Both the position numbers and the translations under genes were made by a program. Shown here one piece after another: positions 2 through 23,392 of a DNA stretch of 64,000 bases. Under the pieces are notes generated by a model, which was not told the origin of the DNA, did no database searches, and was given only the letters and a program-made list of their open reading frames with translations. This stretch comes from Patescibacteria group bacterium (GTDB lineage: Bacteria > Patescibacteriota > Microgenomatia > 0-14-0-10-38-17): assembly GCA_050947035.1 (NCBI GenBank), contig JBMNVW010000002.1:4820-68819 (forward strand), read 5' to 3'. Each line of letters begins with the position of its first letter. The first letter of the stretch is position 1.

Positions 2-3000
2 ACTTCCCCCACCTTCAAGTTACAAATTGCCGGATCCGGCGATTTACTTTCCATTGGCGATACGGCCGGGAACACCTTCTTCTCGGTGACTGATTCTTTA
101 ATTACCTCAAATCTTCCCCATACCTTTACCTCAAGTGGGGATGTGAGTATGGCCTATGATTTAATTTTTACTAATCAAACTTCTGCCAAGATTGAATCAT
201 ACGGCCCCTTCTCTATTATTGCCGGGGAGTCTCATGAATCAAACAATCTGACTCTAAAGACTTACAATGCCGGAAAGTTAATTGTTGATTCGGCTAACTT
301 CTGGGTAGATAGTGCTAATGTCGGTATCGGTACTACCGACCCCGCCTACACCCTGGATGTTAATGGCGATATTGGTATTGCTTCTGGGTCTGATTTGTAT
401 CTTGGTGGAATAGGGTTGGGTGGGACCGGCGGAGCCGGGTTGGTAGGATTTGATAATGCCGGACTAAGTTATGTGACCTCCTCGACGGTTCAAGGAGGAA
501 TAGAAGATTTGGATGGGGCTATCAGTAGTGTTTCTGGGGAGATTAGATGGACCATGGATGGAGATAGTGGTACTCCTCAGATTGTGGGGGCGGGCCAAAC
601 CGCCAGTTGGGTGGGGGGAACGGGAATTAGTACAACAGTGGGAGCCGACAGACAACTAACCATTGACTTTGATACGACCTGGGGAGATGGTCGATACATT
701 CAAGATCAGTTTTCTTCGGCCCAAGATGCTGATTTCTGGATTGATGGAGTTGGGTTAGTGGGCACCAGGTTGGGGGTGGGCGCCACTCACCCCTCCTACT
801 CTCTTTACACCACTGGCAACTTAGGGGTGGGAGGAACGGCTTACTTTGCTGGCAACGTCGGGGTGGGGACGACTTCGCCCTGGAATTTCTTGGATGTTTC
901 CACCGGTTCATCAACAAATACCACCGGTGTTATTGTCGGCGCCACGTCAGGTTCTTCGACAAATAACGATGCAACACTAATTGGCTTTCGGCTTCGTAAC
1001 ACTAACAATGGTTTCATGAACAGTTCTAATTTATACGATGCTGGCATAGCCGGTATCGTAAACGGAACAGGAGTAAATAGATCGGCATTAGCATTTTACA
1101 CACGTCAATCGTCAGCGGCGGTAGTAGAAAGAATGAGAATTGACTATTTGGGCTCCGTCGGCATTGGTACCACTGATCCTGCCGCCCTCCTCTCAGTCGG
1201 CGCCACCTCTCAATTCAGGGTTGATAGCAGTGGTGATATTACCCGGATTAAGAACCTGGCCTACTCTTGGCCATCAAGCCATACTGCTGATGGATTCTTA
1301 CAAGATGATGGTTCAGGCAACCTGGCTTGGACTACCATTGCTGGAGCGGGTGGAGTAACTGGAACTGGTACCCAAAACTATTTACCTATTTGGTTATCAG
1401 GCGGATCTAGTTTGGGAGATTCCTCTATTTATGAATCAGGCAATAATGTGGGAATTGGCGGAACGGCCCCTAGCACTTCTCCCTCCCTGTACGTGGGAGC
1501 AGATGGTAATGTGGGGATAGGAACGACGGGGCCGGGGGCAAAACTACATGTTCAATATCCAAGCTCAGGCGATATTATTTTTGACGCCGGTACTGGTGAT
1601 GGTGCCTCAGACATGAATATCCAATATGGTTACAACGGCTATGGCTGGTATTGGAAGTATTTAGGCAGTGGCTCTGGTGATAACAATGAATTACAGTTGT
1701 GGAGTGAGGGGGCGGGTAGTACTGATCAACAAGCATACGGAATAAAACAAAGCGGCAAAATGACTTTTTATCAGGATGCCACCTTTAATGGTGATATTTT
1801 AATGACCGATGACGATTACATCGGTATTAGCGGTGCAGAAAGAATCCAATTTGATACTGCCGGACATATTGAAATGATGGGGGCAAATGTGGGAATTGGG
1901 ACGACGGAGCCGCTAACTAAACTAGATATAAGAGATACAAGTCCCAAAATACATCTTTATGACTCCACAGCGCAAACCCAAACAAATTACCTGCTTGGTT
2001 CAATTGTAGCTAGTAACGCCTATACTCCATCTATAGATCGCACAGCCGCTAGTATTGATTTTTATTCCAATGCATCTCAATGGTTTAAGGGCGAGATTGT
2101 TTTTAAAACTAACAACTCAGATAGTACCGCTAATGCGGCTGTGGAAAGGGTTAGGATAAATGCGGCAGGCAACGTCGGCATCGGCACCAGCAGTCCCTCT
2201 GGAGCCCTGCAAGTAGTTGATGATGAGGTGCGAATTGGCAGTGGGGGGACGATAAATTATGCTACCGGGGATGGGGATCTTTACGTCCAAGATGATCTGG
2301 AAGTGGATGGAATAATTTATGGCACAATCGAAGGTTCATTTACCCCTTCCGGTGACTTAGACATGAATGAACACATTATCACTAATATCGGCAATACCGG
2401 AACAGATTTTACTAGCGGCGGTGGATTAACCTTGGCTGGTGATTTAACTGTTTCCGGGGGTGATATTGCCTTGGGCACAACCAATATCTTCTCTGGTGGT
2501 GATACAACAAGCTTGAATAATATTGATGCTATCAATGCCACTACAGAAAGCACCCTAGAGGGGGCATTAGATTTAACTGGGAGAATCACAGGAACATTAA
2601 ATAGCAACTCTTTCACTGTTTCCACTGATTGGGGTGATGTTTCCACTGATGCTTCCGGCAATGTGCAAATTGACAGCAATGTGGTTGGGGCAACTGAAGT
2701 AGCCGATGATTCTCTTGATTTTGCTCAATTCGCTGACAGTATGAGCCTCGATAATTTAACTAAGATTGATCTTAGCTCCTATGACTTTGGCTTTTATGGA
2801 ACTGGCAATGTGGGGATTGGTACCACCACCCCTTCCTACAAACTAGACATAGCTGGCACTGGTACTCTCTTTAGAATTGCTTCAGGAGGAACTGACCTTT
2901 TTACTGTTACAGATTCACTGATTACCTCTAACCTACCCCATACCTTTACCTCCAGTGGGGATGTGAGTATGGCTTACAACCTTCTCTTTACTAATCCCGC

Positions 3001-6000
3001 TGCCTCTTATGTCCGCTCCTCTGCCCCGCTATATATTGAGGCCGGAGAAACCTATGGTTCTTCAAATCTAACCTTGAGAACTTATAACACTGGCGATATT
3101 ATTTTAGAAAGCGCTAATCTCTGGGCCGACGGGTCAAGTGTCGGCATCGGCACCACTGATCCTTCTCAAGAGCTACATGTAAATGGAGATATCAGAGTTA
3201 CCGGTGGGTATTATGATTCCGAAAACAGTATTGGCTCCAACGGCGATGTCTTAACTTCCACTGGAGTGGGAACAACCTGGTCGTCTGTTTCTGATTTATC
3301 GGTTGGTAATGCCGATACTCTAGATACTCTAGATTCAACTGATTTCTTAAGAGCCACTGCTTCTGATACCTTTGAAGCTGGTAATACCCTAACTATCAAC
3401 GGAGCTTTGGATGTTAATGGGGCAGTAACTTTGGGTGATGGTGGTGATGATATTTCTATTAATAGTGATGATTGGGATATCTCAAGTGCTGGGGTAGGGT
3501 CTGGCTTTACCCAATTTAATGTTGACAACCTAAGACTAGATGGTAATACGCTATCAGCTACTAATGCTTCTGGGCTATATCTTTATGATGATGGTTCAAA
3601 TGGAATCTTTATCGAGGATGGGGGGAACGTGGGGGTGGGGACAACAGGTCCGAACTCTTCTCTGCATGTTAATGGCATGATAACGACTAACTCTGGTTTC
3701 GGTCTTAGTTTCGCTAACTATCACAAAATTTATGAAAAATCGTATAGCGTGAGAACAAGCGATCCTGCCACCTTGGTTGACGAAAATGGAAGCCCATTTG
3801 ACGTGAATAAAAGTTATCGTGTTAGGGGCGTAGTAACTAGCACAGGGACACAAACAGGAGCTGTAGCTTACTTTTATGGCAATGGGTCATCTTTTAGCAT
3901 ATATAAAAACTACGAATCTGGTAATACTTCTAATCATATTGAATTTTACCTTGATTCCGGTACTCCGAAAGTGCGCCTTTTTGATCATACTAGTTTTTAC
4001 AACGTTTCTGTTTTGACAGAAGAAGTTATCAATAAAGGACGCATCGCAGGACCAGAAATGTTCATTTATGCATATGGCGGCGGCAACGTCGGCATCGGAA
4101 CGACGAATCCCGGATCTTACAAGCTAAACGTGGCTGGTAATACCTACATTGATGGGGCCCTAACTACTACCGGAGCCATAACCGCCCCAACTAGTACTAA
4201 TACTATTAATAACTTAGTAATTAACTCCGGGACAATTACCTCTGGCACCTGGCAAGCAACCGCCATTGCCCCTACCTATGGCGGCACTGGAGATAATACC
4301 TCTTCTACCACTGGCGTTCCTTACATTACCGCTGGTAATTGGCAGTATGAGTCGACCCTTGATGAAACTAGAGGTGGAACTGGTTTATCCTCCTACTCGA
4401 CTGGGGATTTGCTTTATGCTTCAGGAACCGATACTTTAGGCAATTTGGGTATTGGCACTACAGGCCAAATCTTGACTGTTTCTGGCGGAGTGCCGGTTTG
4501 GGCGGACTCTTCAGGATTAGGAACCGATGACCAAACCTTGGCAGAGGTATTAACAGAGGGTAATACTACTTCAGGAAACAATATTGTTATGAGTACTACT
4601 GATGAGTTAAGGTTCTATGATGATGATACTGATCAGCGAATCTATGCTAGTGCTGATGGTACTCTTAACATTGCCAGTACCAACCTGGCAATAGATACTA
4701 GCAGCTGGGATATTTCTACTGCCGGGGTAGGCTCTGGCTTTACCCAATTTAATGTTGACAACCTAAGACTAGATGGTAATACCCTATCAGCTACTAATGC
4801 TTCTGGGCTATATCTTTATGATGATGGTTCTAATGGAATCTTTATCGAGGATGGGGGGAACGTGGGGATTGGGACGACGGATCCGGGGGCAAAACTGGAA
4901 GTGGCCGGCAATTTAAAAGCCGATAAATTTGTTGACACCGCCGGCGGCGGCGCTTACTATCTTGACCCTGCCCACGGAACCATCTCACTTCTTACCGCCG
5001 GCAATGCCGGTATTGGCACTGTCAGCGCTGATTATAGATTAGATGTTCGGTCCGGAACCACAGACAATGTAGCAAAATTCTCCTCTTCTGATGATTTGGG
5101 TCAAATACTAATAGCCGATAATGATACCACCACCTATCTTGGCGCCAAAGACAGTAGGGCATTTTTGGGATCAAGCAGTGGTCTTTCGAGCAACAATTTA
5201 GTAATTAACAGCGATGGCAACGTTGGCATCGGGACGACCGATCCCTCATATGATCTCCACGTTGCTGGCGATTCCTACGCCAATAGATTTCTAGCTCCTA
5301 ACGGCACCCCGAGCAACCCTGTTTATTCCTTTTTTGCCAGCCCCACAACGGGTATTTTTAGAGGTTTTGCTATTAACGAAATAGGTTTTAGTAATTCCGG
5401 CAGCACCAGCATGTTGATCAATGCCGATGGCAACGTTGGCATTGGAACAACTGATCCTGATTATAATCTGGAAGTTTCCGGGACATTAGGAATTGGTTCT
5501 ACTGCTTATTTCGGCTCTTTCGTCGGCCTAGGGGTCGCTTCGCCCAACACAACCTTGCACGTCAAGGACACCCAGGACTATCAATTGCTGTTGCAAAATA
5601 ATGACAACACTACTGGGGACACCGCCGGCCTTCTCTTTAAAGTTGCTACTCTTGATACAGCAAACGCCAAGGGGGGAATTTTGTTTGAAAGGACAGGTTC
5701 CTACGGTCGAGGCAGTATTCATTTTGTTGCCAATAATGACGCCGCAAATAGTGACGCCGATCTTGATGATAAGGCAATGACCATTTATGCCGATGGTAAT
5801 GTTGGTGTCGGGACAACATCGGTTAATAGCCCTTTTGGTGTTTATGGACAAATAGCCTCTTTTTCTCACCCAACCGCCACCAGTGGTAATGTTGTCTCTA
5901 TTCAAGCTGGTACCGGCACAGGGGCCAGCGCCAACAGAATACGATATGGAGGATCTGGTAATAACAGTCATAATTTTGACATTCAGGGTCCAGGAGATAC

Positions 6001-8242
6001 CTTTCTCATATACGGCAGCACTTATGATTCAACTATCTACCGGGCCGGCTACAGCTCTAGTTGGAACACTCCTTCTGATCAGAGAATTAAGACTGAGATA
6101 AACACTCTTAGTGGTGCTCTAGAAAAAATTACTCAGCTAAATCCAGTTACATTTAAGTGGAAAGATGACTATCGAAATAGTATTAATACCAATCTAAAAG
6201 ACATAAATTACGGCTTTATTGCTCAAGAGGTCCAACGGGTCATGCCCCACATGGTAACAATAAAAGACTCACTTAGCTACGGTGACACCACCATTGAAGA
6301 CTTCTTAAATTTAGACACCAGCGATCTCACCCCCTACATAGTCAAGGCAATTCAAGAACAACAAAGCCAAATAAACAATATTTCTCAAAAAGTAACTCTG
6401 CTCAACAATGACCTTTCTGTTACCAATTCTGGCGATCTAAATATCGAAATTGTCGGCGATGATTACCAAGTTCATAACACCTCTACTAATAAAATTGTTA
6501 ATCGGATAGGCTCCTTCGGGGAAACAGTAATTGCTAAGGCTAGAGTCGGCCTAATCGAAACAACTAGCCTAATTGCCGATACGGTGACTACCCGCCGAGT
6601 TAAATCTGAAAAGCTTCTCTCCCCCATTATCGAGACGGAGGAAATCAGACTCAAAGCGCAAAATTCAAAACTCAAAACCACAACTCAAAACTCAAAATTA
6701 TCAATTGTTAATTCGGCCAACGAACCAACGGCTGAATTTGATACGGAAACTAAAACCACTACCCTATTTGGTGACTTAATAATAGAGCGCGGACTAAAGT
6801 CCGCTACTTCAGAATTTGAGAAAACTAAAAGCAAACAAGCCACTTTTGGCGATTTGCTGGCCCAAAACGTCGGCATCGGTCAATTAGAGGCCGAAAGTGT
6901 TAAAACCGAAGAACTAGACGTTGCCCAAGATGCCACTATCGCCGGCACTCTATATGTTGATCGGGTTGTGGCTCGAGATGGGGGCTTTGGCGAACTTTTG
7001 GCTAAAGACATTAGCATGGATAGTCTAAGATCAATTGTGAGGGAAGAAATGGAAAAGAACACTGAGAACACGAATAATATAAGCACTGAGGACACGAATG
7101 TAAGCACGAATGACACAGAAAATACAGATTCCGGATCGGAGTCCGGAATGACCGAGACCTCGGAGTCCGAAATGACGGATGAAGAGATGGATATTGAAAG
7201 TTTGTTAGCCGAAGTGGAGGGCTGGCTAAATCTAAACACGGATAGTGATTTAGTCGTTGGTGAAGAAACAGCCATCCCTGAAAATCAAATTAACGCCATT
7301 GCCGATAATTTTATTCATCAGGGAGATTTAACTATCTTGGGACAAACGACTGCCAATAACGCTCTAATTACTGGACAATTAATTATTGGCGATTTAACTT
7401 TGGCTGATAACAGTATTAGCAACCTTAACGGCAACCTCTATCTGCAAAAAGAAGGCTTGGGCGGTTTGGATGTTTTAAATGGCAAGTTTATGATTGATAC
7501 CGAAGGCAACGTTTTTATCGCTCAACACCTAACAGTTAGCGGTGATTTAATGGCCGGAAAAATTAAACCCAAAGAGGGAGAGGATTTGGTTTTGGATTTG
7601 ATTAATAGTGTGGGACAGGGAGAGGATGACAATGAGGACACGAATGGGGACACGAATCAAACGAACGATGAAGAAAATGACACTGAGGATACGAATATTA
7701 ATACGAATAACGCAGAGAACACGCTAGAAGAAACAGGGTTTGGGAAACTGCTCGTCAAAGGAGCCAATCAAGAAACAGTCGCTCAAATTGATGCTTCCGG
7801 TTCAGCTCAATTTGCCGGCACGGTTAGGGCTGATAGCCTGGCCATATCAAAACCGGAAAATAGTCAAGAAGACATTGTTATCGCCGCCTCAGAAAATTTT
7901 GACCAGGTTAACATCTGGGCCCCGGGGATTACCAGCAACGCTTCGGCCGGCCAGGCCAGTCTTCCTGTCGGTCAAACCGATTTAATTATTTACAACAACC
8001 GACTAGTTGATGAATCAATGGTTTATCTTACCCCTACCTCTGACACCCAAAACCAGGTTCTTTATGTTAAAGCGAAAGTAGCGAAAAAGAACACTGAAGA
8101 CACGAATGGGAACACAAATGACACAAATAGTAATACGAATATCGACACAAATGACACGAACAATGATAAGAGTTACTTTGTGGTGGGGATAAACCAGTCC
8201 ATTAACGAAGAGGTGAAATTTAATTGGTGGATAATAAACTAA
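2..8242 (+). CDS. Giant repetitive surface/tail-fibre-like protein, 5'-partial (reading frame open to window edge). It has many G(N)VGIGTT(D/S)P repeats and a C-terminal peptidase S74 intramolecular chaperone domain, followed by acidic (D/E)TN-rich tracts.
   Basis: There is no in-frame stop from position 2 to the listed start at 86, which is a GTG. The upstream translation TSPTFKLQIAGSGDLLSIGDTAGNTFFSVTDSLITSN parallels the internal repeat around nt 2830-2930. More than 20 NVGIGTT motifs are present. The S74 signature SDQRIKTEINTL...NPVTFKWKDD...YGFIAQEVQ lies at about nt 6060-6400. Confidence 0.8.
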   Translation, partial: TSPTFKLQIAGSGDLLSIGDTAGNTFFSVTDSLITSNLPHTFTSSGDVSMAYDLIFTNQTSAKIESYGPFSIIAGESHESNNLTLKTYNAGKLIVDSANFWVDSANVGIGTTDPAYTLDVNGDIGIASGSDLYLGGIGLGGTGGAGLVGFDNAGLSYVTSSTVQGGIEDLDGAISSVSGEIRWTMDGDSGTPQIVGAGQTASWVGGTGISTTVGADRQLTIDFDTTWGDGRYIQDQFSSAQDADFWIDGVGLVGTRLGVGATHPSYSLYTTGNLGVGGTAYFAGNVGVGTTSPWNFLDVSTGSSTNTTGVIVGATSGSSTNNDATLIGFRLRNTNNGFMNSSNLYDAGIAGIVNGTGVNRSALAFYTRQSSAAVVERMRIDYLGSVGIGTTDPAALLSVGATSQFRVDSSGDITRIKNLAYSWPSSHTADGFLQDDGSGNLAWTTIAGAGGVTGTGTQNYLPIWLSGGSSLGDSSIYESGNNVGIGGTAPSTSPSLYVGADGNVGIGTTGPGAKLHVQYPSSGDIIFDAGTGDGASDMNIQYGYNGYGWYWKYLGSGSGDNNELQLWSEGAGSTDQQAYGIKQSGKMTFYQDATFNGDILMTDDDYIGISGAERIQFDTAGHIEMMGANVGIGTTEPLTKLDIRDTSPKIHLYDSTAQTQTNYLLGSIVASNAYTPSIDRTAASIDFYSNASQWFKGEIVFKTNNSDSTANAAVERVRINAAGNVGIGTSSPSGALQVVDDEVRIGSGGTINYATGDGDLYVQDDLEVDGIIYGTIEGSFTPSGDLDMNEHIITNIGNTGTDFTSGGGLTLAGDLTVSGGDIALGTTNIFSGGDTTSLNNIDAINATTESTLEGALDLTGRITGTLNSNSFTVSTDWGDVSTDASGNVQIDSNVVGATEVADDSLDFAQFADSMSLDNLTKIDLSSYDFGFYGTGNVGIGTTTPSYKLDIAGTGTLFRIASGGTDLFTVTDSLITSNLPHTFTSSGDVSMAYNLLFTNPAASYVRSSAPLYIEAGETYGSSNLTLRTYNTGDIILESANLWADGSSVGIGTTDPSQELHVNGDIRVTGGYYDSENSIGSNGDVLTSTGVGTTWSSVSDLSVGNADTLDTLDSTDFLRATASDTFEAGNTLTINGALDVNGAVTLGDGGDDISINSDDWDISSAGVGSGFTQFNVDNLRLDGNTLSATNASGLYLYDDGSNGIFIEDGGNVGVGTTGPNSSLHVNGMITTNSGFGLSFANYHKIYEKSYSVRTSDPATLVDENGSPFDVNKSYRVRGVVTSTGTQTGAVAYFYGNGSSFSIYKNYESGNTSNHIEFYLDSGTPKVRLFDHTSFYNVSVLTEEVINKGRIAGPEMFIYAYGGGNVGIGTTNPGSYKLNVAGNTYIDGALTTTGAITAPTSTNTINNLVINSGTITSGTWQATAIAPTYGGTGDNTSSTTGVPYITAGNWQYESTLDETRGGTGLSSYSTGDLLYASGTDTLGNLGIGTTGQILTVSGGVPVWADSSGLGTDDQTLAEVLTEGNTTSGNNIVMSTTDELRFYDDDTDQRIYASADGTLNIASTNLAIDTSSWDISTAGVGSGFTQFNVDNLRLDGNTLSATNASGLYLYDDGSNGIFIEDGGNVGIGTTDPGAKLEVAGNLKADKFVDTAGGGAYYLDPAHGTISLLTAGNAGIGTVSADYRLDVRSGTTDNVAKFSSSDDLGQILIADNDTTTYLGAKDSRAFLGSSSGLSSNNLVINSDGNVGIGTTDPSYDLHVAGDSYANRFLAPNGTPSNPVYSFFASPTTGIFRGFAINEIGFSNSGSTSMLINADGNVGIGTTDPDYNLEVSGTLGIGSTAYFGSFVGLGVASPNTTLHVKDTQDYQLLLQNNDNTTGDTAGLLFKVATLDTANAKGGILFERTGSYGRGSIHFVANNDAANSDADLDDKAMTIYADGNVGVGTTSVNSPFGVYGQIASFSHPTATSGNVVSIQAGTGTGASANRIRYGGSGNNSHNFDIQGPGDTFLIYGSTYDSTIYRAGYSSSWNTPSDQRIKTEINTLSGALEKITQLNPVTFKWKDDYRNSINTNLKDINYGFIAQEVQRVMPHMVTIKDSLSYGDTTIEDFLNLDTSDLTPYIVKAIQEQQSQINNISQKVTLLNNDLSVTNSGDLNIEIVGDDYQVHNTSTNKIVNRIGSFGETVIAKARVGLIETTSLIADTVTTRRVKSEKLLSPIIETEEIRLKAQNSKLKTTTQNSKLSIVNSANEPTAEFDTETKTTTLFGDLIIERGLKSATSEFEKTKSKQATFGDLLAQNVGIGQLEAESVKTEELDVAQDATIAGTLYVDRVVARDGGFGELLAKDISMDSLRSIVREEMEKNTENTNNISTEDTNVSTNDTENTDSGSESGMTETSESEMTDEEMDIESLLAEVEGWLNLNTDSDLVVGEETAIPENQINAIADNFIHQGDLTILGQTTANNALITGQLIIGDLTLADNSISNLNGNLYLQKEGLGGLDVLNGKFMIDTEGNVFIAQHLTVSGDLMAGKIKPKEGEDLVLDLINSVGQGEDDNEDTNGDTNQTNDEENDTEDTNINTNNAENTLEETGFGKLLVKGANQETVAQIDASGSAQFAGTVRADSLAISKPENSQEDIVIAASENFDQVNIWAPGITSNASAGQASLPVGQTDLIIYNNRLVDESMVYLTPTSDTQNQVLYVKAKVAKKNTEDTNGNTNDTNSNTNIDTNDTNNDKSYFVVGINQSINEEVKFNWWIIN

Positions 8243-8274: not shown

Positions 8275-8643
8275 ATGACCAATGATCAAAAAAAATATGA
8301 CTTGGAGGAAAGAACTGCTCGCTTTGCTGAAAATGTCATTCGATTCTGTAAAACAATCAAAATTAACGACATCAATCGACCTTTAATTAGTCAATTAATT
8401 AGGGCTAGTACTAGCATAGCCGCTAATTACTGCGAGGCTGATGATGCTGAATCAAGGAATGATTTTAAACATAAGATTGGTATTTGCAAAAAAGAGGCCA
8501 GAGAATCTAAAAGTTGGTTAAGAATGCTAGTCGTTGCTAATCCGGAAACAAAAAAAGAAGCAAGAAGGCTTTGGCAGGAAGCGAAAGAGCTTCACTTAAT
8601 CTTTAACGCTATCACTCATTCCACTAACAAAAACAAAAAATAA
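8275..8643 (+). CDS. Four-helix-bundle protein of the 23S rRNA intervening-sequence protein family, located outside the rRNA genes.
   Basis: The protein is 122 aa and its sequence (ERTARFAENVIRFCKTI...ASTSIAANYCEA...KEARESKSWLRM) is typical of this family. It is flanked by inverted AT-rich arms: aaatttctaattactaatttctaat upstream and attagtaattagtaattagaaatt downstream. Confidence 0.7.
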   Translation: MTNDQKKYDLEERTARFAENVIRFCKTIKINDINRPLISQLIRASTSIAANYCEADDAESRNDFKHKIGICKKEARESKSWLRMLVVANPETKKEARRLWQEAKELHLIFNAITHSTNKNKK

Positions 8644-8748: not shown

Positions 8749-10950
8749 TTATTCTGTCGGGGTGGTTTCTGGGGTTTCCTCTACCTCTTCTTCCGGAGAA
8801 ATAATTTCCTCTTCGGTCGACTCTTCTAAAACCGGCTCAGGAGGAGCAATGTCTTCTTCAGGTAAATCAACTGGTTCAAATTGGGGTTCGGGAAGAGCTT
8901 GAGGTGGTTCCAGCTGTTCGTTCACTTCTTCTTCACCTTCAACCGGCTCTTGTTGAGGCAAACGGTCTTTAATTTGTTCTAAATCTTGCTGAACTCGATC
9001 AAAATCGGCTGAACCCGGCTCAACCAAAGAAAGCACCGTTTGTAATTGCAAGGCGGCGTCAGTCCATTTTTCTTGCTGGACATAAGCGGCGGCCAAATTG
9101 TAATGAGCGTTGGCATGGTCGGGTTTTAAATTAACCGCTGTTTCAAACTGCCGCTGGGCCAACTCAAAATTACCCAAAGCAAAATAAAGCCCACCCAGCT
9201 CTACCCGTAAATTAGGATTAACCGGATCCAAGGCAATTGCTTGACTTAGTGACTCAATTGCCCATTGCTCGGCCTCTTGGGCGACACCAATAATTTGCCG
9301 ATAAACATCAGCCAGACTTGCCCAATTGTTAGACCAAAAAGGGTTAATCGCTACCGCGTTTTTGGCTTCCCTAATAGCCTGCTGAATAAGAATAGCAATT
9401 TGTTGTTGGTCTTGTTCAGTCAAATTTTCATTTTGAGAAAAAGTACCAGCTAGAGCAAGATTGGTTTGAGCATAACCAAGACGGTAAGTATCAGAATGAG
9501 GATTTTTTTCTAGGGCTTCAATCTGCCAATTATAAGCATTACCGCCTTCACCTCGATTAAAAGCGGCTACGGAACGAGCAAATAAAACATCAGCCCAAGC
9601 TGCTCGACCATACCAAAAACCAGAAAACAATAAAGCACCAGCTAAAATTATTAACAAAATATAGCGATTTATCTCTAGCTTTGGCCTAACTTCTCCTAAA
9701 CCAACCCCGCTACTCTCGTCCGACAAGCCAACCAAACTTAGCAAAACAAAGAAAACTAGCCACAGACTAATGTCAAAGGGAACAAAAAAAGCAATAACTA
9801 ACAATAGCAAAACCAAAATTTCCGGACGAGCATTTATTATCCGGTTATCAGCATCTTTAAGCTTTCGCCAAATAGATACGGCTAAGCCCGAAAAAGCCAA
9901 TAGTCCTAATAGGCCAACCTCAGTTAAAAGATTTAGATAATGTCCAAAAGAGTTAGCAAAGTAAATTGCCCAAGCCGAGGTGTTATTAACCGTTACAGGA
10001 CGAAAACGAGCGTAAGCGGTTCGAAAATTGCCCGGACCAACACCAAAAATAGCCCCAACAAAACTTTTAAAATTCTCTACGGCCACAATCCAAGCATTTT
10101 GCAAGCCAATTAAAACCGGCTCTGACTCTAGTAAGACAACCACTCCCATTACCACCCCTAAAGCCAAAATGATCAATAGGGCCAGCAAGCCGATTAGGCT
10201 GGTTAATTTAAAGTCTTTTTTTATCAATCTTAATAAGGCCAATAAAACATAAACGGCCGCCAAAACAATTAAAACAATTGTTGTTAAGATTGACCCTGTT
10301 GGCGTCCAAGTGTTAATAGAAAAAATCTCCCAAGTAAAAAACTTAGCCAAAAAGCCAGTATATTGAAAAACTGTTAACAGCGCTAAGACTACTGCCGAAG
10401 CGGTTAAGGCGCCGAACATCAATCTTTGTGTCTTTTTGGCTTCCTTGCCCTCTCCCCTAACCTGCTTAATTAACAGCATTAACAGGAAACCGGCCAAAAC
10501 GACGGCCGTTGTTTTAGAAAAAGCATTAATCCTGGCCGAAACATTGGGTTGTAAAAAAGAGGAAATAACAAAAGCCAAAACCAAAAGTAAGCCAAAAACT
10601 AAAACTTTTTTATTGTCAAAAAAAATCGTTTGGTTATTATTTTCGCTTTTACCAAGGACGACCGGCAATAAAAAAGCCACCCAACCAAGCAAAACACCCA
10701 AAATAAAAAGTATGGTCTTGGGTAAAACGTAAACACTAAATAAAGAAGGAATAAAGATGAGAGGAACTAAAAAAGTAATTAAGGCTAACCAATATTTTAA
10801 GTATTTCATTTTTGAAGAAGACTTTATCTTTGAGGCAGTTCTGGCAGACTTGACACCCAGGGTGTCATTAAGTGTTTCCCCCATTAGCTTAATACTATAA
10901 CATTTTTGATGGGGCGTCAATAATATATAAACCCAAAGCACAAAATCCAA
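8749..10950 (-). CDS. Polytopic membrane protein with an O-antigen-ligase-like (Wzy_C) domain, C-terminal TPR repeats, and an acidic proline/glutamate-rich tail.
   Basis: Multiple transmembrane segments; the motif FGHYLNLLTEVGLLGLLAF fits the Wzy_C H-N-x-x-L...E-x-G pattern; TPR-like repeats (AHYNLAAAYVQQEKWTDA) near the C-terminus. Confidence 0.6.
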   Translation of the reverse strand: MDFVLWVYILLTPHQKCYSIKLMGETLNDTLGVKSARTASKIKSSSKMKYLKYWLALITFLVPLIFIPSLFSVYVLPKTILFILGVLLGWVAFLLPVVLGKSENNNQTIFFDNKKVLVFGLLLVLAFVISSFLQPNVSARINAFSKTTAVVLAGFLLMLLIKQVRGEGKEAKKTQRLMFGALTASAVVLALLTVFQYTGFLAKFFTWEIFSINTWTPTGSILTTIVLIVLAAVYVLLALLRLIKKDFKLTSLIGLLALLIILALGVVMGVVVLLESEPVLIGLQNAWIVAVENFKSFVGAIFGVGPGNFRTAYARFRPVTVNNTSAWAIYFANSFGHYLNLLTEVGLLGLLAFSGLAVSIWRKLKDADNRIINARPEILVLLLLVIAFFVPFDISLWLVFFVLLSLVGLSDESSGVGLGEVRPKLEINRYILLIILAGALLFSGFWYGRAAWADVLFARSVAAFNRGEGGNAYNWQIEALEKNPHSDTYRLGYAQTNLALAGTFSQNENLTEQDQQQIAILIQQAIREAKNAVAINPFWSNNWASLADVYRQIIGVAQEAEQWAIESLSQAIALDPVNPNLRVELGGLYFALGNFELAQRQFETAVNLKPDHANAHYNLAAAYVQQEKWTDAALQLQTVLSLVEPGSADFDRVQQDLEQIKDRLPQQEPVEGEEEVNEQLEPPQALPEPQFEPVDLPEEDIAPPEPVLEESTEEEIISPEEEVEETPETTPTE

Positions 10951-11003
10951 AAAGAGAATTCAAAATTAAAAAAACACATCTTATGGCTTTGGTTTTCTTT
11001 TCC

Positions 11004-11171
11004 GAACGGGATTCTTCGGGAGTACCCTCAGAATGACGTCTTTTTTCGTCATCCTGGGGATCTTCTCTTCCTCGTCATCCTGAGCCCCCCACCCCCGTCA
11101 TCCTGAGCGTCAGCGAAGGATCCCGTCCGAGAAGAGTCTCCAGATTCTTCGGGAGTACCCTCAGAATGACG
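11004..11171. repeat. Cluster of MITE-like hairpin repeats (family A, terminal inverted repeats cgtcatcctgag / ctcagaatgacg), located upstream of the GIY-YIG gene.
   Basis: Copies of gattcttcgggagtaccctcagaatgacg and cgtcatcctgag(c/g) were read directly. A complete 76-bp element spans 11096-11171. Confidence 0.7.
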
Positions 11172-11203
11172 ATACGTGACAAAAATATGCTAATTTAAAT
11201 CTA

Positions 11204-11491
11204 ATGAAAGTAATCGCCACGTATATCTTAACCAATAAAAGAAATACCGTTCTCTACATCGGTGTTACCAGCGATTTAATAAAAAGAATTTGGCAACATA
11301 AAGAAAAACTAGTTGCGGGTTTTACCCGCAAATACAACATTAACAAATTAATCTATTACGAGGTTTTTGATAATATCCGAGAAGCAATAAAAAGAGAGCG
11401 ATATTTAAAAGGCAAAAAAAGGCAGTACAAAATTAATTTAATTAGAAAAAAGAACCCCAAGATGAAAGATTTGTATCCGGATTTATTGTGA
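11204..11491 (+). CDS. Small stand-alone GIY-YIG (URI-domain) nuclease family protein.
   Basis: The sequence KVIATYILTNKRNTVLYIGVTSDLIKRIWQHK...YYEVFDNIREAIKRERYLKG matches the GIY-YIG signature. The gene is bracketed on both sides by family-A repeats. Confidence 0.7.
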   Translation: MKVIATYILTNKRNTVLYIGVTSDLIKRIWQHKEKLVAGFTRKYNINKLIYYEVFDNIREAIKRERYLKGKKRQYKINLIRKKNPKMKDLYPDLL

Positions 11492-11496
11492 AAAAG

Positions 11497-11699
11497 AGAT
11501 TCTTCGGGAGTACCGTCAGAATGACGGGGTTGGTGTGTGTCATCCTGAGGCCGCTTCTAGCCTTCGTCATCCTGAGGCCGCTTCAAGCGACCGAAGGATC
11601 TCAGGGGATTCTCGGACGGGGTTCTTCGGGAGTACCCTCAGAATGACGGGGTGGAAGAACGGGACTCTTCGTCCGCCAGCTGGCAAATTCAGAATGACG
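11497..11699. repeat. Second cluster of family-A MITE-like repeats, immediately downstream of the GIY-YIG gene.
   Basis: The motifs gattcttcgggagtaccgtcagaatgacgg, cgtcatcctgaggccgcttc(t/a)ag and ttcttcgtccgccagctggcaaattcagaatgacg were read directly. Confidence 0.7.
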
Positions 11700-11747
11700 A
11701 AAGAAAAAAGCCTTAGAATAACGAGAAAATTATAATTTTTAGGTTTT

Positions 11748-12845
11748 TTATTGTAAGTAACTTAATGGATTAACATTACCCGAAGGGGTGCGAATCTCAA
11801 AATGAAGATGAGTTCCGGTAGAACGACCCGTTGATCCCATTCTACCCAAAACCTGACCCCGCAAAACCTGCTGACCATTATTAACTGCCACTGAAGAAAG
11901 GTGGGCATAAAGAGTCTTAACACCATCGCCATGATCAATAACGACATAAATTCCATAGCCTCGAGAAGGAGCAGTCCAGCCAGCATCAACTACTGTCCCA
12001 CCTCGAGAAGCAACTATCGCCGGCCCTGAAGGATCGGCAATATCAATTGCCTTATGATACCAATGATATCCTTGGGAAATTCTACCGGTAGTAGGCCAAA
12101 TATATTCTCCTTGGGCTTGAGCGATATAATCGGGAACCTGAGGAATAGTCTCTGAGGGGGTAGCTGGCGGCGACCAAGGCTTAGCCTTAGGCACCACTCC
12201 ACCAGGAACAATCAAGTCTTGGCCAACCGCTAAAGCAAAAGTCTCATCATTAATAAAAGTATTAAAAGGGAAATCAACAATGGCCTGAGGATCAACACCA
12301 TAATTTTTGGCAATTGAATAAACTGTCTCTCCCCTTTTCACTGTATGCAAAACGCCAGTCTCGGGTAAAATTTTCAAAGTCTGGCCTACCTTAACATCAT
12401 CAACCGATTTTAAATCATTAGCCCACCTAATTGTGTCCAGGGAAACATTAAATTTTTGCGCAATTGAAGAAACAGTATCGCCCTCGACAACAGTATATTC
12501 GACCACTCCGCCTCTTCGACCAGAATTATTATTTTCTACCCCCAAAACAGAAAAATTAAAGCTAGCATCTCCTAAAACGGCCCCATCCTGGCTTATTGCC
12601 TGATCAATTCTATCAGGAGAAAAAAGGGGTGAAATAGCCACTCCTAAAATAACCATTAGACCAACACCAAAATGGCTGACAGGGCGAGAGAGGCGTCCCC
12701 GCTTTCGATAAAGAAAATAGGCTCCTCGAGACTTATTTTCATCTAAAAAAGAAGTTAAGAGCAATAAGCGCTTTTTAAAAAAAACCAACCAGGCTTTTAA
12801 AAAAAGATTAAGGTTCTCTGAAAGGGATTTTTTTTGGCCAATCAC
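11748..12845 (-). CDS. LysM-domain M23-family metallopeptidase (peptidoglycan endopeptidase).
   Basis: Two LysM-like segments (YTVVEGDTVSSIAQKF, HTVKRGETVYSIAKNY) and the M23 motifs HKAIDIA...GSTGRSTGTHLHFEIR. An N-terminal transmembrane segment is present. Confidence 0.8.
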   Translation of the reverse strand: MIGQKKSLSENLNLFLKAWLVFFKKRLLLLTSFLDENKSRGAYFLYRKRGRLSRPVSHFGVGLMVILGVAISPLFSPDRIDQAISQDGAVLGDASFNFSVLGVENNNSGRRGGVVEYTVVEGDTVSSIAQKFNVSLDTIRWANDLKSVDDVKVGQTLKILPETGVLHTVKRGETVYSIAKNYGVDPQAIVDFPFNTFINDETFALAVGQDLIVPGGVVPKAKPWSPPATPSETIPQVPDYIAQAQGEYIWPTTGRISQGYHWYHKAIDIADPSGPAIVASRGGTVVDAGWTAPSRGYGIYVVIDHGDGVKTLYAHLSSVAVNNGQQVLRGQVLGRMGSTGRSTGTHLHFEIRTPSGNVNPLSYLQ

Positions 12846-12885
12846 TGCTTGACTATATTAGCAAATATGGGGCATTTGTTCAATT

Positions 12886-13007
12886 GGCGCGAACTAAAGT
12901 TCGCTACTTCAGTCTTTTGGAGTAGCGCGGTTTACTGCGCGTCCCAACTCTTCTTGAGCGTGGGCTTGGGCCCAAGGCCCATCAGCCTCGGGCTGAAAAG
13001 CCCGCTA
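12886..13007. repeat. Modular stem-loop repeat, families D and E: ggcgcgaactaaagttcgctacttcag...agtagcgcggtttactgcgcg followed by gggcccaaggcccatcagcctcgggctgaaaagcccgct.
   Basis: Near-identical copies occur at 15333-15391 and 16105-16197. A partial inverse copy lies at 24445-24468 and a variant at 17573-17614. Confidence 0.7.
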
Positions 13008-13060
13008 ATCCGGAAAATAAGGAGGGGCAAAAAAGAAACTTTAGACTTTAAATTATTGGT

Positions 13061-15979: not shown

Positions 15980-16079
15980 CGTCATCCTGAGGTTGCTTCA
16001 AGCGACCGAAGGATCTCATTCCTCGGTTACCTTCCCGGACGGGATTCTTCGTCCGCCGGCTGGCGGACTCAGAATGACG
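15980..16079. repeat. Complete family-A MITE-like element of about 100 bp.
   Basis: Its full sequence is cgtcatcctgaggttgcttcaagcgaccgaaggatctca...ggacgggattcttcgtccgccggctggcggactcagaatgacg, with imperfect terminal inverted repeats. Confidence 0.7.
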
Positions 16080-16104: not shown

Positions 16105-16197
16105 GGCGCGGACTTGGGCCTAAGGCCCATCAGCCTCGGGCTGAAAAGCCCGCTACTCCAGGTTTTGGTTTTTGAAGTAGCGCAATTTATTGCGCGC
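16105..16197. repeat. Rearranged copy of the family E and D stem-loop modules.
   Basis: The module gggcctaaggcccatcagcctcgggctgaaaagcccgct is followed by the hairpins gctactcca...gaagtagc and gcgcaatttattgcgcgc. Confidence 0.65.
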
Positions 16198-16205: not shown

Positions 16206-17513
16206 CTAGGCGATTAATTTGATTGCCTCATTCAAACTAGAAGCATTTTTAGAAGAAATAATTTTCTTATAACCTAATCTTTTCGCCTCAGTAATTCGCT
16301 TTTCTTCTTGAGAAGCTGGCCTTATCTCTCCTAATAGGCCAATTTCTCCAAAGACAACCACCTCAGGTCCAATAACATTATTCTTATAAGAAGACCAAAT
16401 TGCCAAACAAGAGGCTAAATCTACTGCCGGCTCTTCACTTTTAACGCCTCCGGCAATATTTAAAATAACATCTTGGTTGTAAAGAGGAGTTTTCAAATGC
16501 TTTTGCAAAATAGCCACATGAAGTTCTAGTTTATTCCTGCTCATACCTTTAGCCAATCTCCTTGGATAGGCCATATTGGTTTTAGTTACCAAGGACTGAA
16601 CCTCTAAAATTAATGGTCTTGTCCCTTTCAAAAGAACAGTTTTGACCACCCCGGCCATCGGCTTTTGATCAGCTGATAAAAACAACTTAGCCGGATTATT
16701 AACCGGTTCCAGTCCTGAAGAAGTCATCACAAATACCCCTACTTCACCGGTGGCCCCAAAACGGTTTTTAACCGAACGTAATAATCTTAATTGTCCATGC
16801 TGATCGCCTTCAAAATAGATGACCGTGTCCACAGCATGCTCTAGCACTTTAGGACCAGCAATTGAGCCTGACTTGGTAACATGACCAACTAAAAACATGG
16901 AAATATTTTTTCTCTTGGCAAAATTAATTAAGCGAGAAGCCGATTCCCTAACCTGACCAAGAGAACCGGCCGCCCCAGTTAAATCTTGGGTGGTTAAAGT
17001 TTGGATTGAGTCAACAATAACCAGGCTATTTTTATCAAGGCTATCAAGGGTGGCTATCACCTCGTCCACATCGGTTACTGAAATTAGTCTTAAATTCTTT
17101 CCGCTAACTTTTAATCGATCGGCCCTCATCTTAATCTGTTCCGGTGATTCCTCACCACAAATACAACAAACAGGCTCAGGAGCAAAAGCCTCGGTAAGCT
17201 GTAAAAGAAGAGTTGATTTACCAATTCCGGGTTCTCCGGCTAGCAAAACTGCCGATCCGGGGACTACTCCTCCCCCCAAAACTCGATCTAGTTCGTCAAT
17301 ACCACTTTGAAGGCGATTTTTTTCTTGACTTTTGACTTGGGAAAATTGAAGAACTTTAGCTTTATTTGCTCTAGAGGACGATTTTGAGCCAGTGCTGACA
17401 AGCTGGGTTTCTTCTAGGCTATTCCACTCCCCGCAACTAGGACAACGACCCTGCCATTTAGGAGCCTGATAACCACATTGCTGACAGACAAAAGCGGTTT
17501 TGATTTTCGCCAT
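16206..17513 (-). CDS. radA: DNA repair protein RadA (Sms).
   Basis: N-terminal zinc ribbon (CQQCGYQAPKWQGRCPSCGEWNS), Walker A motif GEPGIGKST, and a C-terminal Lon-like domain. Confidence 0.9.
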   Translation of the reverse strand: MAKIKTAFVCQQCGYQAPKWQGRCPSCGEWNSLEETQLVSTGSKSSSRANKAKVLQFSQVKSQEKNRLQSGIDELDRVLGGGVVPGSAVLLAGEPGIGKSTLLLQLTEAFAPEPVCCICGEESPEQIKMRADRLKVSGKNLRLISVTDVDEVIATLDSLDKNSLVIVDSIQTLTTQDLTGAAGSLGQVRESASRLINFAKRKNISMFLVGHVTKSGSIAGPKVLEHAVDTVIYFEGDQHGQLRLLRSVKNRFGATGEVGVFVMTSSGLEPVNNPAKLFLSADQKPMAGVVKTVLLKGTRPLILEVQSLVTKTNMAYPRRLAKGMSRNKLELHVAILQKHLKTPLYNQDVILNIAGGVKSEEPAVDLASCLAIWSSYKNNVIGPEVVVFGEIGLLGEIRPASQEEKRITEAKRLGYKKIISSKNASSLNEAIKLIA

Positions 17514-20182: not shown

Positions 20183-21075
20183 CAAGTTTTATTTTAACAA
20201 AAATTTTCTTTTAGTAAAGCTTAATCTACTCTTTGTTAGAACAAGAATGTTTTTTTCTCTTTTTTTTAGTCATTTAGGAATTAAGTTTTTTCACATCCAA
20301 ATTCGATCGATTAGTACTGGTCAGCTGAATTCGTTGCCGAACTTACACTTCCAGCCTATCAACCAGGTAGTCTTCCTGGGATCTAAGACTCCTCATCTTG
20401 GAGTAGGCTTCCCGCTTGAGATGCTTTCAGCGGTTATCCATTACAAACGTAGCTACCCAGCTTGCCGCTGATGCGACAACTGGCCCACCAGAGGTTTGTC
20501 CATCCTGGTCCTCTCGTACTGAGGACAGATCTCCTCAAGAGTCAAAACGATTACTGCGGATAGAGACCGAGCTGTCTTACGACGCTCTGAACCCAGCTCA
20601 CGTAGGATTTTAATGGGCGAACAGACCAACCCTTGGAGACTTCTTCATCTCCAGGATATCCTGAGCCGACATCGAGGTCGCGAACTGGCCCGTAGATGTG
20701 TACTCTCGGGACCAACCACGCTGTTATCCCCGGGGTAGCTTTTATCCGTTAAGCCCTGGCTTCATCCATAGAAGCACAGGGGATCACTAAGACCTGCTTT
20801 CGCACCTGCTCGACCCGCCGGTCTTGCAGTCAAGCTGGCTTGTGCCTTTACACTTTCCTCCCGATTTCCATCCGGGATAAGCCAACCTTTGTGCGCTCGC
20901 GTTACTTTTTAGCAAGCGACTGCCCCAGTCAAACTACCCACCAGGCACTGTTCCTAAGTTCGTATCCAGAACTTCCAGGTTAGAACTGAATTTAATGAAG
21001 AGAGGTATTCCACTGGCGACCGAAGTCTCCCTCCTATTCTCGACAGTCATTAAATACAATTCAATGCCAAGTTGT

Positions 21076-21106
<31 letters not shown>

Positions 21107-21427
21107 AGTAATTAGGCCGCATCTTCACAGCCATTTCAATTTCGCCGAGTAGAGGTTTGTAGACAGTTGTTCGGTCGTTGGGCCTTTCATACAGGTCGGA
21201 ACTTACCCGACAAAGGACTTCGCTACCGTAGAACAGTTAGAGTTACTGCTGCCGTTCACCGGGGCTTCAATTCTCCGCCCGCATTTTTTCCGAAGAAAAA
21301 ATGAGAACAAAGTCATTTAACCTTCCGGCACTGGGCAGGCTTCAGCCCCTATACCTCCTCTTTTGGAGTTTGCAGAGACCTGTGTTTTTGGTAAACAGTC
21401 GCCGAACAATCTTTAGCTGAGACCCAT

Positions 21428-21631
21428 CTCGCCCACAGGACGAGAAAATCCTAAAGGATTAAACTCTAAATTCTAATTTCTAAAATCCAAACAATAACTA
21501 AATTCTAAATTCCAATGTTCCAAACAGATTATTTGTTTCGAATTTGGAATTTGGAAAATTAGGATTTGTTTGGGATTTCGGATTTCGGATTTAGAATTTT
21601 CTAGAATTTCCTTGTCCTATGGACAAGACAG
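21428..21631. repeat. IVS-like insertion (a) in the 23S. It is AT-rich, with ttctaaattccaa-type repeats, and is capped by the hairpins ctcgcccacaggacgag and cttgtcctatggacaag.
   Basis: It aligns at about 85-90% with the tRNA-Ala/23S spacer element at 24073-24249. Confidence 0.7.
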
Positions 21632-22177
21632 GCAGGGCATCTTGTGACCTTACGCCCAGCTTGTTTGCCGAGTTCCTTAAACCTCTTTCTCTCGCTCGCC
21701 TTGGTCTTCTCGACCTACCCACCTGTGTTGGTTCTTGGTACGATTTTTGTAAACTCTCACTGCGACACTTTTCTCGGAAGATAAAATCAGCTAATTGAAT
21801 CAAAAAAGATTCTCTTCATCGTAAGCTTGACATTAACGAACCGGCGGATTTGCCTACCAGTCCTGCCTTGCTACTTAAACGACAGCAACATCAATCGCTG
21901 CGCTAGCATTATCTGTCTCCGTCATGACCCAGTTAATAACGATTTTACAAAAGTACAGGAATATCAACCTGTTATCCATCCACTACCCAAGTAAAACTTG
22001 GCTCATGTTAGGATCGACTAACCCCCTGACGACGAACGTTGCAGGGGAAACCTTAGGTTTTCGGCGGTCTGGATTCTCACCAGACTATTTGCTACTCATG
22101 CCAGCATTCTCACTTCCGAACGCTCCAATAAACCTCACAGTTTATCTTCACCGCCTTCGGAACGCTCCCCTACCACC

Positions 22178-22316
22178 TCGCCCCCTGGGCGAGAAACTCC
22201 AAATATTCTAAATCCAAAATCCAAATAATATTGATCTGATAGGTCTTATTGGACCTATGTTTGTGGAAATTGAAAATTTGAAATTTGAAATTTCTTGTCC
22301 AAAAGACAAGGTCTGG
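22178..22316. repeat. IVS-like insertion (b) in the 23S, at the approximate helix-45 position. It contains the palindrome tctgataggtcttattggacc.
   Basis: AT-rich gaaatttgaaattt repeats end in the hairpin cttgtccaaaagacaag. Confidence 0.65.
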
Positions 22317-22945: not shown

Positions 22946-23098
22946 CCGTTCTCCGAACGGGAAGCTCCAATTTCCAATTAAGCCAATTTCCAAACAAATT
23001 CCAAATAACAAATCTTCAAAATTGAAAATTAAAGCATTTTTAGAATTGATTGGTCATTGGTAATTGGTGGATTGAAAATTCCTGTTCGAAGAACAGGC
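22946..23098. repeat. IVS-like insertion (c) in the 23S, at the approximate helix-25 position.
   Basis: It begins with cccgttctccgaacggg, contains AT-rich ccaatttccaa repeats, and ends in the hairpin cctgttcgaagaacagg. Confidence 0.65.
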
Positions 23099-23392
23099 TT
23101 TGCCTGCTTGTTAGCAAACGGTTTCAGGTACTATTTCACTCCCCTTCCGGGGTGCTTTTCACCTTTCCCTCACGGTACTATTCACTATCGGTCGACAAAA
23201 GTATTTAGTCTTGGCTAATGGTTCAGCCGGATTCACACAAAGTATGTTCATTGTGTTACTTGGGAAAACTAGCTTGTTTTTATTTTGGTTTCGTATACCA
23301 GGCTTTCACTGTCTTTGGCCACCTATTCCAAAATGTTCTACTACCAAAACAAAAAACAAATATGCTTGCCTCCCACAACCCCCACCTCGTGC

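Follow-up and report, generated by a model that had tools for sequence, protein, structure and literature searches.

Which relation connects a small nuclease gene to the hairpin repeats that enclose it on both sides? This question is raised by a locus in the window studied here, a stretch of 64,000 nucleotides from a genome of the Patescibacteria (contig JBMNVW010000002.1), where a gene for a single-domain GIY-YIG nuclease of 95 amino acids stands between two clusters of inverted repeats. The first-pass annotation, which was made from the sequence alone, had offered two answers, a nuclease that mobilises or targets its own repeats or a nest of repeats that captured a selfish nuclease. We assign the locus to the Ssn-SRM system. 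The window protein is most probably a member of the Ssn family and the flanking repeats are most probably its cognate SRMs (Ssn-related motifs), a reading to which we give a probability of about 0.88. The system was already published in 2025 and was not recognised in the first-pass annotation. What is new here is modest and consists of a host among the Patescibacteria, bipartite hairpins outside the published SRM string, an Ssn subgroup without two conserved tryptophans, and the turnover of cassette and repeat units between sister genomes.

The system was described by Chenal et al. (2025, Nat Commun 16:2388; PMC11893778). In that study the oriented form of the dRS3 repeat, the NTS (CGTCATTCCCGCGMAVGCGGGAATCYRG), was found to be associated across bacteria with ssnA, a gene for a single-domain GIY-YIG protein of 94 amino acids which is assigned to cd10448 (GIY-YIG_unchar_3). 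An SRM lies nearby in 71% of the ssnA homologs and on both sides of the gene in 42%. SsnA binds the NTS only as single-stranded DNA (ssDNA) and cuts it a few nucleotides upstream, and it is inactive on double-stranded DNA (dsDNA), on RNA and on the reverse strand. Cleavage is lost with each of the exchanges Y6A, Y17A and E64A. Cutting depends on the three nucleotides which precede the palindrome on its 5' side, and binding depends on the C which directly follows it on its 3' side. Three other homologs likewise cleaved the motifs that belong to them, and the activity on ssDNA only was shown for four homologs. In N. meningitidis SsnA lowers transformation by DNA which bears the NTS (all from PMC11893778). 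Our literature search found no paper on the Ssn family after Chenal et al. 2025.

The nuclease gene and its flanking hairpins

The window protein comprises a GIY-YIG domain at residues 5-77 (Pfam, PF01541, E=4.9e-17), and its AlphaFold model consists of one compact domain of this type with a pLDDT of 93.7. A sequence search of the Protein Data Bank (PDB) with the window protein gave no match. In a fold search the solved structures that match the model best are small UPF0213 proteins (BH0048, PDB 1ZG2; EF2693, PDB 1YWL), Slx1 and the N-terminal domain of UvrC. They share the fold and are of similar size, but are only 25-29% identical, and to our knowledge proteins of these types are not paired with flanking hairpins.

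A tblastn search of a 7.3-Gb database with the window protein led to the chromosome of N. gonorrhoeae (E=8e-22), which is contained there as a PLSDB entry mislabelled as a plasmid. The ssnA ortholog on this chromosome is an open reading frame (ORF) of 94 amino acids among canonical NTS repeats, and it stood in for the SsnA of N. meningitidis in our comparison. Both proteins align without a gap at 46% identity (pairwise, E=4e-32), and the E values of both searches lie below the E < 1e-10 that Chenal et al. use to define SsnA homology. The residues Y7, Y18 and E65 of the window protein align with Y6, Y17 and E64 of N. meningitidis SsnA, which are required for cleavage, and they are invariant across 24 homologs. 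More than 1,300 relatives were found at E values up to 0.001, and many of them are 55-70% identical to the window protein despite belonging to unrelated phyla. The exact sequence is annotated in a metagenome-assembled genome of the Patescibacteria, and the nearest relative comes from a Microgenomates bin. NCBIfam has no model for the family, and its single match, to TIGR01453, is sub-threshold (E=0.006, 16.6 bits against a cutoff of 56).

The gene, here called ssn, is present as a single copy within the window. It had been described as the lone plus-strand gene of a long minus-strand block, and this description is accurate, as all ORFs of at least 110 amino acids from 8749 to 37146 are encoded on the minus strand. 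The genes dnaN and probably dnaA are found at the right end of the window, on the minus strand as well, and ssn is probably oriented head-on to replication.

The two repeat clusters do abut the gene on both sides, as had been seen before. Box A (CGTCATYCTGAG) has 13 matches with at most one mismatch in the 64-kb window, where 0.31 are expected, and none of 100 dinucleotide shuffles reaches this number. Ten of the matches fall within 11027-11699, not more than 700 bp from ssn. The real repeat unit measures about 28-37 nt and is composed of a CGTC tag, ATYCT, GAG, a short variable hairpin, CGA, AGRAT and C. The ssDNA fold of each unit comprises an unpaired tag, a proximal stem of 5 bp, a 2x2 GA/GA internal loop, a variable distal stem-loop and an unpaired tail which starts with C. 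The window contains ten complete units (7 minus, 3 plus) and four head-only copies, which consist of tag and left arm (at 11047, 11073, 11538 and 34079). In all ten complete units the CGTC tag is followed by AT. At the other end of the stem AT precedes the C in nine units, and AC in the unit at 11620. Set against the probable direction of replication, the 7:3 split between the strands involves too few units to be interpreted. Both clusters are alike in build, with a 28-nt a-type unit (CGTCATTCTGAGGGTACTCCCGAAGAATC) on the minus strand directly on each side of ssn, and within 200 bp of the gene there are five complete units or heads upstream and five downstream (Table 1). The loci with L numbers in the table and below (L088, L091, L095 and others) are contigs of relatives which were compared with the window.

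The elements of 76-100 bp with terminal inverted repeats that were described earlier are present, but they turned out to be inverted dimers of two smaller units (11096-11171, 11565-11648 and 15980-16079). Their designation as similar to miniature inverted-repeat transposable elements (MITEs) found no support. No direct repeats that could be target-site duplications flank any of these three dimers, and no related transposase gene is associated with them, whereas a MITE would have such duplications and would derive from an autonomous insertion sequence with the same ends. The statement that CRISPR-like spacing is absent was right, and CRISPR was rejected due to the irregular spacing and the lack of cas genes. 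The additional copies proposed at 15980-16079 and 34025-34067 correspond to two complete units and to one complete unit with an adjacent solo head, respectively. From the third one, 31736-31845, only a degenerate remnant at its left end was left, and the rest is unrelated. Rfam contains no match to the repeats, neither at the gathering threshold for the whole window nor at E values up to 10 for 10900-11800.

Table 1. Position of the ssn gene, the SRM units and the M23-Rho spacer in the window and in related loci
Feature	Position	Strand	Remarks
ssn gene, 95-aa single-domain GIY-YIG nuclease of the Ssn family (most probable assignment)	11204-11491	+	Pfam, SsnA alignment, fold model
Complete a-type SRM unit CGTCATTCTGAGGGTACTCCCGAAGAATC	11010-11038	-	5-bp stem, GA/GA loop, distal hairpin; identical unit in sister loci L088, L091, L095
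Two head-only copies, CGTCATCCTGGG at 11047 and CGTCATCCTGAG at 11073	11047-11084	+	each followed by C/T-rich filler; 5' of next complete unit
Complete SRM unit CGTCATCCTGAGCGTCAGCGAAGGATC	11096-11122	+	left arm of 76-bp inverted dimer 11096-11171; fold
Complete a-type SRM unit	11143-11171	-	right arm of dimer 11096-11171; end of upstream cluster, 32 nt before ssn ATG; fold
Complete a-type SRM unit, GAC for GAG	11498-11526	-	start of downstream cluster, 6 nt past ssn stop codon; arrangement kept in L088, L095, L096
Head-only copy TGTCATCCTGAG	11538-11549	+	5' of next complete unit
Complete SRM unit CGTCATCCTGAGGCCGCTTCAAGCGACCGAAGGATC	11565-11600	+	left arm of 84-bp dimer 11565-11648; fold
a-type SRM unit with variant 3' end (…CGAAGAACC)	11620-11648	-	
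Complete SRM unit with long distal stem, CGTCATTCTGAATTTGCCAGCTGGCGGACGAAGAGTC	11663-11699	-	
Isolated inverted SRM dimer, units 15980-16015 (+) and 16043-16079 (-)	15980-16079		about 130 nt downstream of radA; ssDNA fold z=-3.5 to -3.7
Complete SRM unit 34030-34066 (-) and solo head 34079-34089 (+)	34030-34089		spacer downstream of ATP-dependent DNA ligase gene
Doubtful degenerate head-to-head remnant	31736-31776		not counted in family
M23-Rho spacer, window	12846-13060		no SRM
M23-Rho spacer, L095 (identical Ssn)	3101-3288		simple-type SRMs
M23-Rho spacer, L094	5705-6069		SRM cluster without gene
M23-Rho spacer, L088	2045-2993		whole SRM-ssn-SRM cassette

Both SRM sites of the window outside the cassette lie just downstream of genes of DNA metabolism, radA (16206-17513) and the ATP-dependent DNA ligase gene (34214-36055), which may be a coincidence. 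In L088 an SRM cluster adjoins radA as well. An SRM-like hairpin of the simple type (GTCATTCCGGACTCCGATCCGGAATC) with a solo head 24 nt 5' of it is found at 7127-7176 on the minus strand, in frame inside an ORF of 2,718 amino acids, where it encodes ...DSGSESGMTETSESEMT... It is reminiscent of the RPEs, the CGTC repeats found inside genes of Rickettsia.

The units of the window connect the SRMs to a group of repeats that was defined earlier. The superfamily of CGTC-tagged repetitive extragenic palindromes (REPs) includes dRS3 from Neisseria and RPE-4 and RPE-6 from Rickettsia (Di Nocera, De Gregorio, Rocco 2013, BMC Genomics 14:522; PMC3733652). In its members the tag, CGTC or TGTC, stays unpaired, the stem starts with two A-T pairs and the 3' tail is short, and they "apparently lack a dedicated transposase" (PMC3733652). 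The window units share the unpaired tag, the A-T start of the stem, a 3' tail starting with C, the predominant arrangement as inverted dimers and the intergenic position. Their stems are interrupted, in contrast to the uninterrupted stems of 8-9 bp with loops of 4-5 nt in CGTC-1 to CGTC-4 (PMC3733652), and they would form a fifth structural type. SRMs are members of the CGTC-tagged superfamily, an equation which is a synthesis of the present study. Chenal et al. (PMC11893778) cite neither the CGTC classification (PMC3733652) nor the Rickettsia RPEs and do not mention hosts from the Patescibacteria or Microgenomates, and in the consulted text Ssn is not discussed as the "missing" dedicated enzyme of the CGTC REPs.

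Pairing of gene and hairpin across bacteria

If the repeats belong to the nuclease, similar hairpins should accompany its homologs. A genome scan gave at least 588 confirmed homolog loci, 80 of which were kept for the analysis of the flanks. The exact box A of the window is found near only eight of these 80 genes because the stem sequence differs by lineage, and a generic detector was therefore needed, which consists of a GTC tag, an arm of 6 nt, the complement of this arm and then C. With this detector a tagged hairpin was identified within 300 bp of the gene in 75 of the 80 loci, which come from many phyla, and on both sides in 57. The density of tagged hairpins is 5.1/kb near the gene, compared to 0.62/kb elsewhere in the same loci and 0.25/kb in shuffled loci. 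Usually the hairpins are oriented with the tags outward. Tag and tail are shared among the flanks of the homologs and the stem is specific for the lineage, as in ATTCCCGC/GCGGGAAT, ATTGC..GCAAT or ATCCTGAA/TTCAGGAT. According to the first-pass annotation, repeats lacking any association with GIY-YIG genes elsewhere would have spoken for ordinary REPs; the opposite was found. That a selfish nuclease was captured by a nest of repeats is unlikely, as the pairing is conserved across phyla. The other answer, a nuclease which targets its own repeats, was the right idea, since the biochemistry of homologs shows that Ssn binds the flanking hairpin as ssDNA and cuts just 5' of the tag.

A scan in the reverse direction, which started from the unit pattern of the window in metagenome contigs, found ssn in five of 120 repeat loci (mean length 5.4 kb), in four of them within 300 bp of a unit. 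Such a result would be given by a repeat that is dispersed in the genome and has a single master gene there. The operational SRM string of Chenal et al., HGTCWYN(0-2)YYVSBRHN(0-5)WNVSBRGN(0-2)RNCYNB (PMC11893778), has matches within 300 bp of the gene in 37 of the 80 homolog loci, compared to 75 for the generic detector.

The bipartite architecture is not restricted to the window. Hairpins of the GAG/CGA class, most often in the form GTCATTGCGAG…CGAAGCAATC, flank the gene in 29 of 97 loci, whose hosts include WOR-3, Chloroflexota, Cyanobacteria, Atribacterota, Aquificota, Brocadiaceae and others. The repeat sequence of the window itself also occurs in Desulfurobacterium, where Ssn is 69% identical. 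In a test that took no pairing for granted, candidates were chosen by the tag and the internal-loop motif alone and had to lie not more than 300 bp from ssn. All five stem positions are complementary in 27 of 50 candidates, which represent seven different stems, and the chance of full complementarity is about 1 in 1024 per candidate. The hairpin structure is under selection.

The Ssn proteins group in agreement with the hairpins. Their mean identity is 60.4% within a hairpin class and 52.1% between the classes, a difference which is not reached in any of 2000 permutations of the labels. The sharpest class-specific sites correspond to residues 71 and 75 of the window protein. Both are tryptophan in 91-94% of the Ssn proteins with simple hairpins, mostly G and K in the GAG/CGA class, and K and Y in the window protein. 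As judged from the sequences, this grouping shows co-evolution and is no proof of contact, and the classes may be clades.

The likeness of the locus to the published system is thus found on the side of the gene as well as on the side of the repeats. The protein has nearly the same length as SsnA, consists of the same single domain and keeps the catalytic residues Y, Y and E. The gene is bracketed by oriented hairpins which retain the features found to be critical in the published mutagenesis, namely a 5' (C)GTC tag in front of the palindrome, A-T as the first pairs and C after the stem. Further repeats are dispersed and clustered elsewhere in intergenic DNA. The window differs in its hairpin, which is bipartite (5-bp stem, GA/GA loop and distal hairpin) instead of an 8-bp stem with a loop of 4 nt, and in its host, a genome of the Patescibacteria (candidate phyla radiation, CPR), where the system is known from sequence alone.

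By analogy to the homologs, for which these steps were shown, the window system would work as follows. Each unit would fold into a hairpin as soon as it becomes single-stranded. To bind this hairpin, Ssn would rely on the sequence of the stem and on the C that directly follows it on the 3' side, and in a hydrolytic reaction with Mg2+ it would then cut the tagged strand a few nucleotides away from the unpaired (C)GTC tag, on its 5' side. Duplex DNA, RNA and the complementary strand would not be cut. In the variant read from the window sequence, the proximal stem (ATYCT/AGRAT) has 5 bp, and the conserved GA/GA internal loop separates it from a distal hairpin that varies between the units. Ssn may in this way mark SRM-tagged ssDNA, which arises from DNA uptake, replication or repair, for cleavage, and recombination around SRM clusters may be limited or shaped as a consequence.

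Several points weigh against the assignment to Ssn-SRM. The placement of the window protein in cd10448 follows from its homology to SsnA and should be taken as probable. The published SRM string has no match in the window, though the same expression matches the canonical NTS, and the recognition of the bipartite hairpin by the window Ssn is for that reason carried over from the homologs and should be regarded as putative. When the palindrome was altered with its structure kept, the activity of the Neisseria enzyme was abolished (PMC11893778), and the specificity of the window Ssn must therefore differ from that of the Neisseria enzyme. Furthermore, Chenal et al. leave the role of Ssn outside Neisseria open (PMC11893778). 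On the other side, SsnA tolerates extensions at the loop position (PMC11893778), and the bipartite unit, a short proximal stem with a distal extension, is for this reason a plausible form of an Ssn substrate.

Mobile elements were also inspected for both partners. No Ssn homolog was found in 50,697 GenBank phage records, and the plasmid matches to Ssn are mostly chromids or mislabelled chromosomes. The SRM pattern of the window is present in at least 120 loci on IMG/VR viral contigs (L218-L337), none of which encodes an Ssn homolog. These contigs may be true phages with Ssn target sites or host fragments.

Array turnover and competing explanations

The comparison with sister genomes addresses the question whether Ssn only reads the repeats or also moves them. 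In L091-L094, whose Ssn is 72% identical, ssn lies between the genes of a TPR protein and an M23/LysM peptidase as in the window. The same site at this level of identity indicates that the locus has been inherited over some depth. In L088 and L089 (Ssn 80%, M23 83% and Rho 92% identical) the whole SRM-ssn-SRM cassette is found one spacer over, between M23 and Rho, and the homology to the window starts exactly at the outer a-type unit. The M23-Rho spacer has a single junction, after "ttgttcaattg", with four different contents in close relatives (Table 1), and is a hotspot. The 23S_rRNA_IVP (IVP) gene directly adjoins M23 in L088, unlike in the window, so the neighbourhood has been rearranged between the relatives.

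Changes of the arrays are also seen between strains with identical Ssn. L094 and L091 differ by about 150 bp of whole units, and L095 lacks, compared to the window, exactly one head-only module (in the region 11047-11084). Head-only copies, which consist of tag, left arm and C/T-rich filler, were counted in all loci including Neisseria when they lie at most 45 nt from a complete unit. There are 85 on the 5' side of the unit and 18 on the 3' side, mostly at a spacing of 19-26 nt (an example is found in L097 at 1370-1400). Cleavage by Ssn also takes place on the 5' side. This variation shows that both the SRM arrays and the place of ssn within them change from one sister strain to another. The turnover fits either cleavage by Ssn or ordinary recombination and slippage.

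The most serious rival reading adds to the Ssn-SRM assignment a further activity, in that Ssn would also generate the repeats and its own cassette and make both of them move, much like RAYT in the case of REPs and REPINs. Cuts on the same strand 5' of the a-type units 11143-11171 and 11498-11526 would release a single strand with an SRM and ssn, which would re-enter another SRM cluster. The architecture SRM-ssn-SRM speaks for this, and the discoverers remarked on the likeness of NTS-ssnA-NTS to an insertion sequence (IS; PMC11893778). The two sites of the cassette, the four contents of one junction, the whole modules that differ between strains with identical Ssn, the polarity of the head-only copies toward the cutting side, and the fact that the CGTC REPs were left without a dedicated transposase (PMC3733652) point in the same direction.

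The window locus shares with the REP/REPIN systems and their RAYT (TnpA-REP, REPtron) a single-copy gene flanked by its hairpins, which are dispersed in the genome and often form inverted dimers, and an enzyme that acts on ssDNA hairpins. However, the window gene encodes a hydrolytic GIY-YIG nuclease and not an HUH/Y1 transposase (IS200-like), and the tag is CGTC and not GTAG; a membership in REP/RAYT itself was rejected for these reasons. GIY-YIG nucleases act hydrolytically, and we know of no strand-transfer or ligation activity for any of them, unlike RAYT, which argues against such a role of Ssn. With the peel-and-paste elements IS200/IS605 the locus has in common the recognition of subterminal ssDNA hairpins with cleavage a short distance away, and the a-type units flank the gene on the same strand. 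It differs from them in that it lacks TnpA as well as left and right ends defined by separate sites of cleavage, and in that the hairpins around ssn in other phyla are usually inverted and not direct. The missing target-site duplications at the dimers, the single copy of ssn in the window, the synteny kept down to 72% Ssn identity, and the results from phage and plasmid records stand against mobility as well. Homologous recombination or slippage between the repeats can explain both the relocation and the changes in copy number. Taken together, an Ssn that moves its own cassette, or mobilises its repeats as the first-pass annotation had considered, is conceivable but less likely than not.

Two other explanations are far less probable. 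The first one regards the repeats as ordinary REP-type terminators or stabilisers of mRNA with a GIY-YIG gene nearby by coincidence. All copies are intergenic, several lie just past the ends of genes (radA, the ligase gene and the convergent pair of ssn and M23), and such roles are known for REPs. However, the coincidence would have to recur in the paired loci of many phyla, the unpaired tag and the 3' C, which are dispensable for termination, are conserved across them, and a scan of the clusters for promoters and terminators gave nothing above shuffles, nor is there a match in Rfam. The association across phyla effectively refutes this explanation. Similarly improbable is a free-standing GIY-YIG homing endonuclease of the I-TevI/Seg type that cuts duplex DNA and spreads by gene conversion, with the repeats as degenerate copies of its target: the GIY-YIG domain, the sub-threshold match to the group I intron endonuclease model TIGR01453 and another gene of homing type in the window (a LAGLIDADG ORF beside the 16S rRNA gene) are outweighed by a length of 95 amino acids that leaves no room for the required DNA-binding domain, by family members which do not cut dsDNA (PMC11893778), by the lack of a phage or intron context, and by 46% identity to the SsnA ortholog compared to 20% to I-TevI in the fold search.

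Other features of the window and significance

Introns in rRNA genes and homing endonucleases are typical of the Patescibacteria. The 23S rRNA gene of the window (20289-23827, minus strand) has 3,539 nt compared to 2,925 nt of the model, which corresponds to an insertion of about 600 nt, and an ORF for a LAGLIDADG_3 protein of 222 amino acids (25119-25787, minus strand) directly adjoins the 16S rRNA gene at its 3' end. A second, unrelated repeat is present as two exact copies of 32 nt (GGCCCATCAGCCTCGGGCTGAAAAGCCCGCTA) on the plus strand at 12976-13007 and 16124-16155, about 50 nt past the stop codons of rho and radA, which are encoded on the minus strand. The two copies may serve as a common 3' element or terminator. 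On the left side of the window the giant repetitive ORF of 2,718 amino acids (86-8242, plus strand) is followed by a gene for a four-helix protein of the 23S_rRNA_IVP family (8275-8643, plus strand).

The window locus does not overturn the current understanding of Ssn. It extends the host range of the only known site-specific endonucleases that act exclusively on ssDNA into the Patescibacteria. With its different hairpin architecture it is also a candidate for a new specificity, and the authors of the Ssn study regard such pairs of enzyme and hairpin as raw material for ssDNA tools. Residues 71 and 75 are candidate determinants of this specificity. It is conceivable, though only tentatively proposed here, that the GA/GA hairpins together with the subclade in which the tryptophans are replaced form a distinct Ssn specificity class, which escapes the published SRM string and is widespread outside Proteobacteria, and that cleavage by Ssn drives the turnover seen as polar heads, gain and loss of units and relocation of the cassette between SRM hotspots.

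The SRMs provide a connection to the older work on CGTC-tagged REPs, for which a dedicated enzyme was lacking, and the variation between the sister strains is a test bed for the question whether Ssn only reads the repeats or also creates and moves them. If the turnover is indeed driven by Ssn, the CGTC-tagged REPs would owe their origin and spread to this nuclease, which would then be the dedicated enzyme that had long been sought for them.

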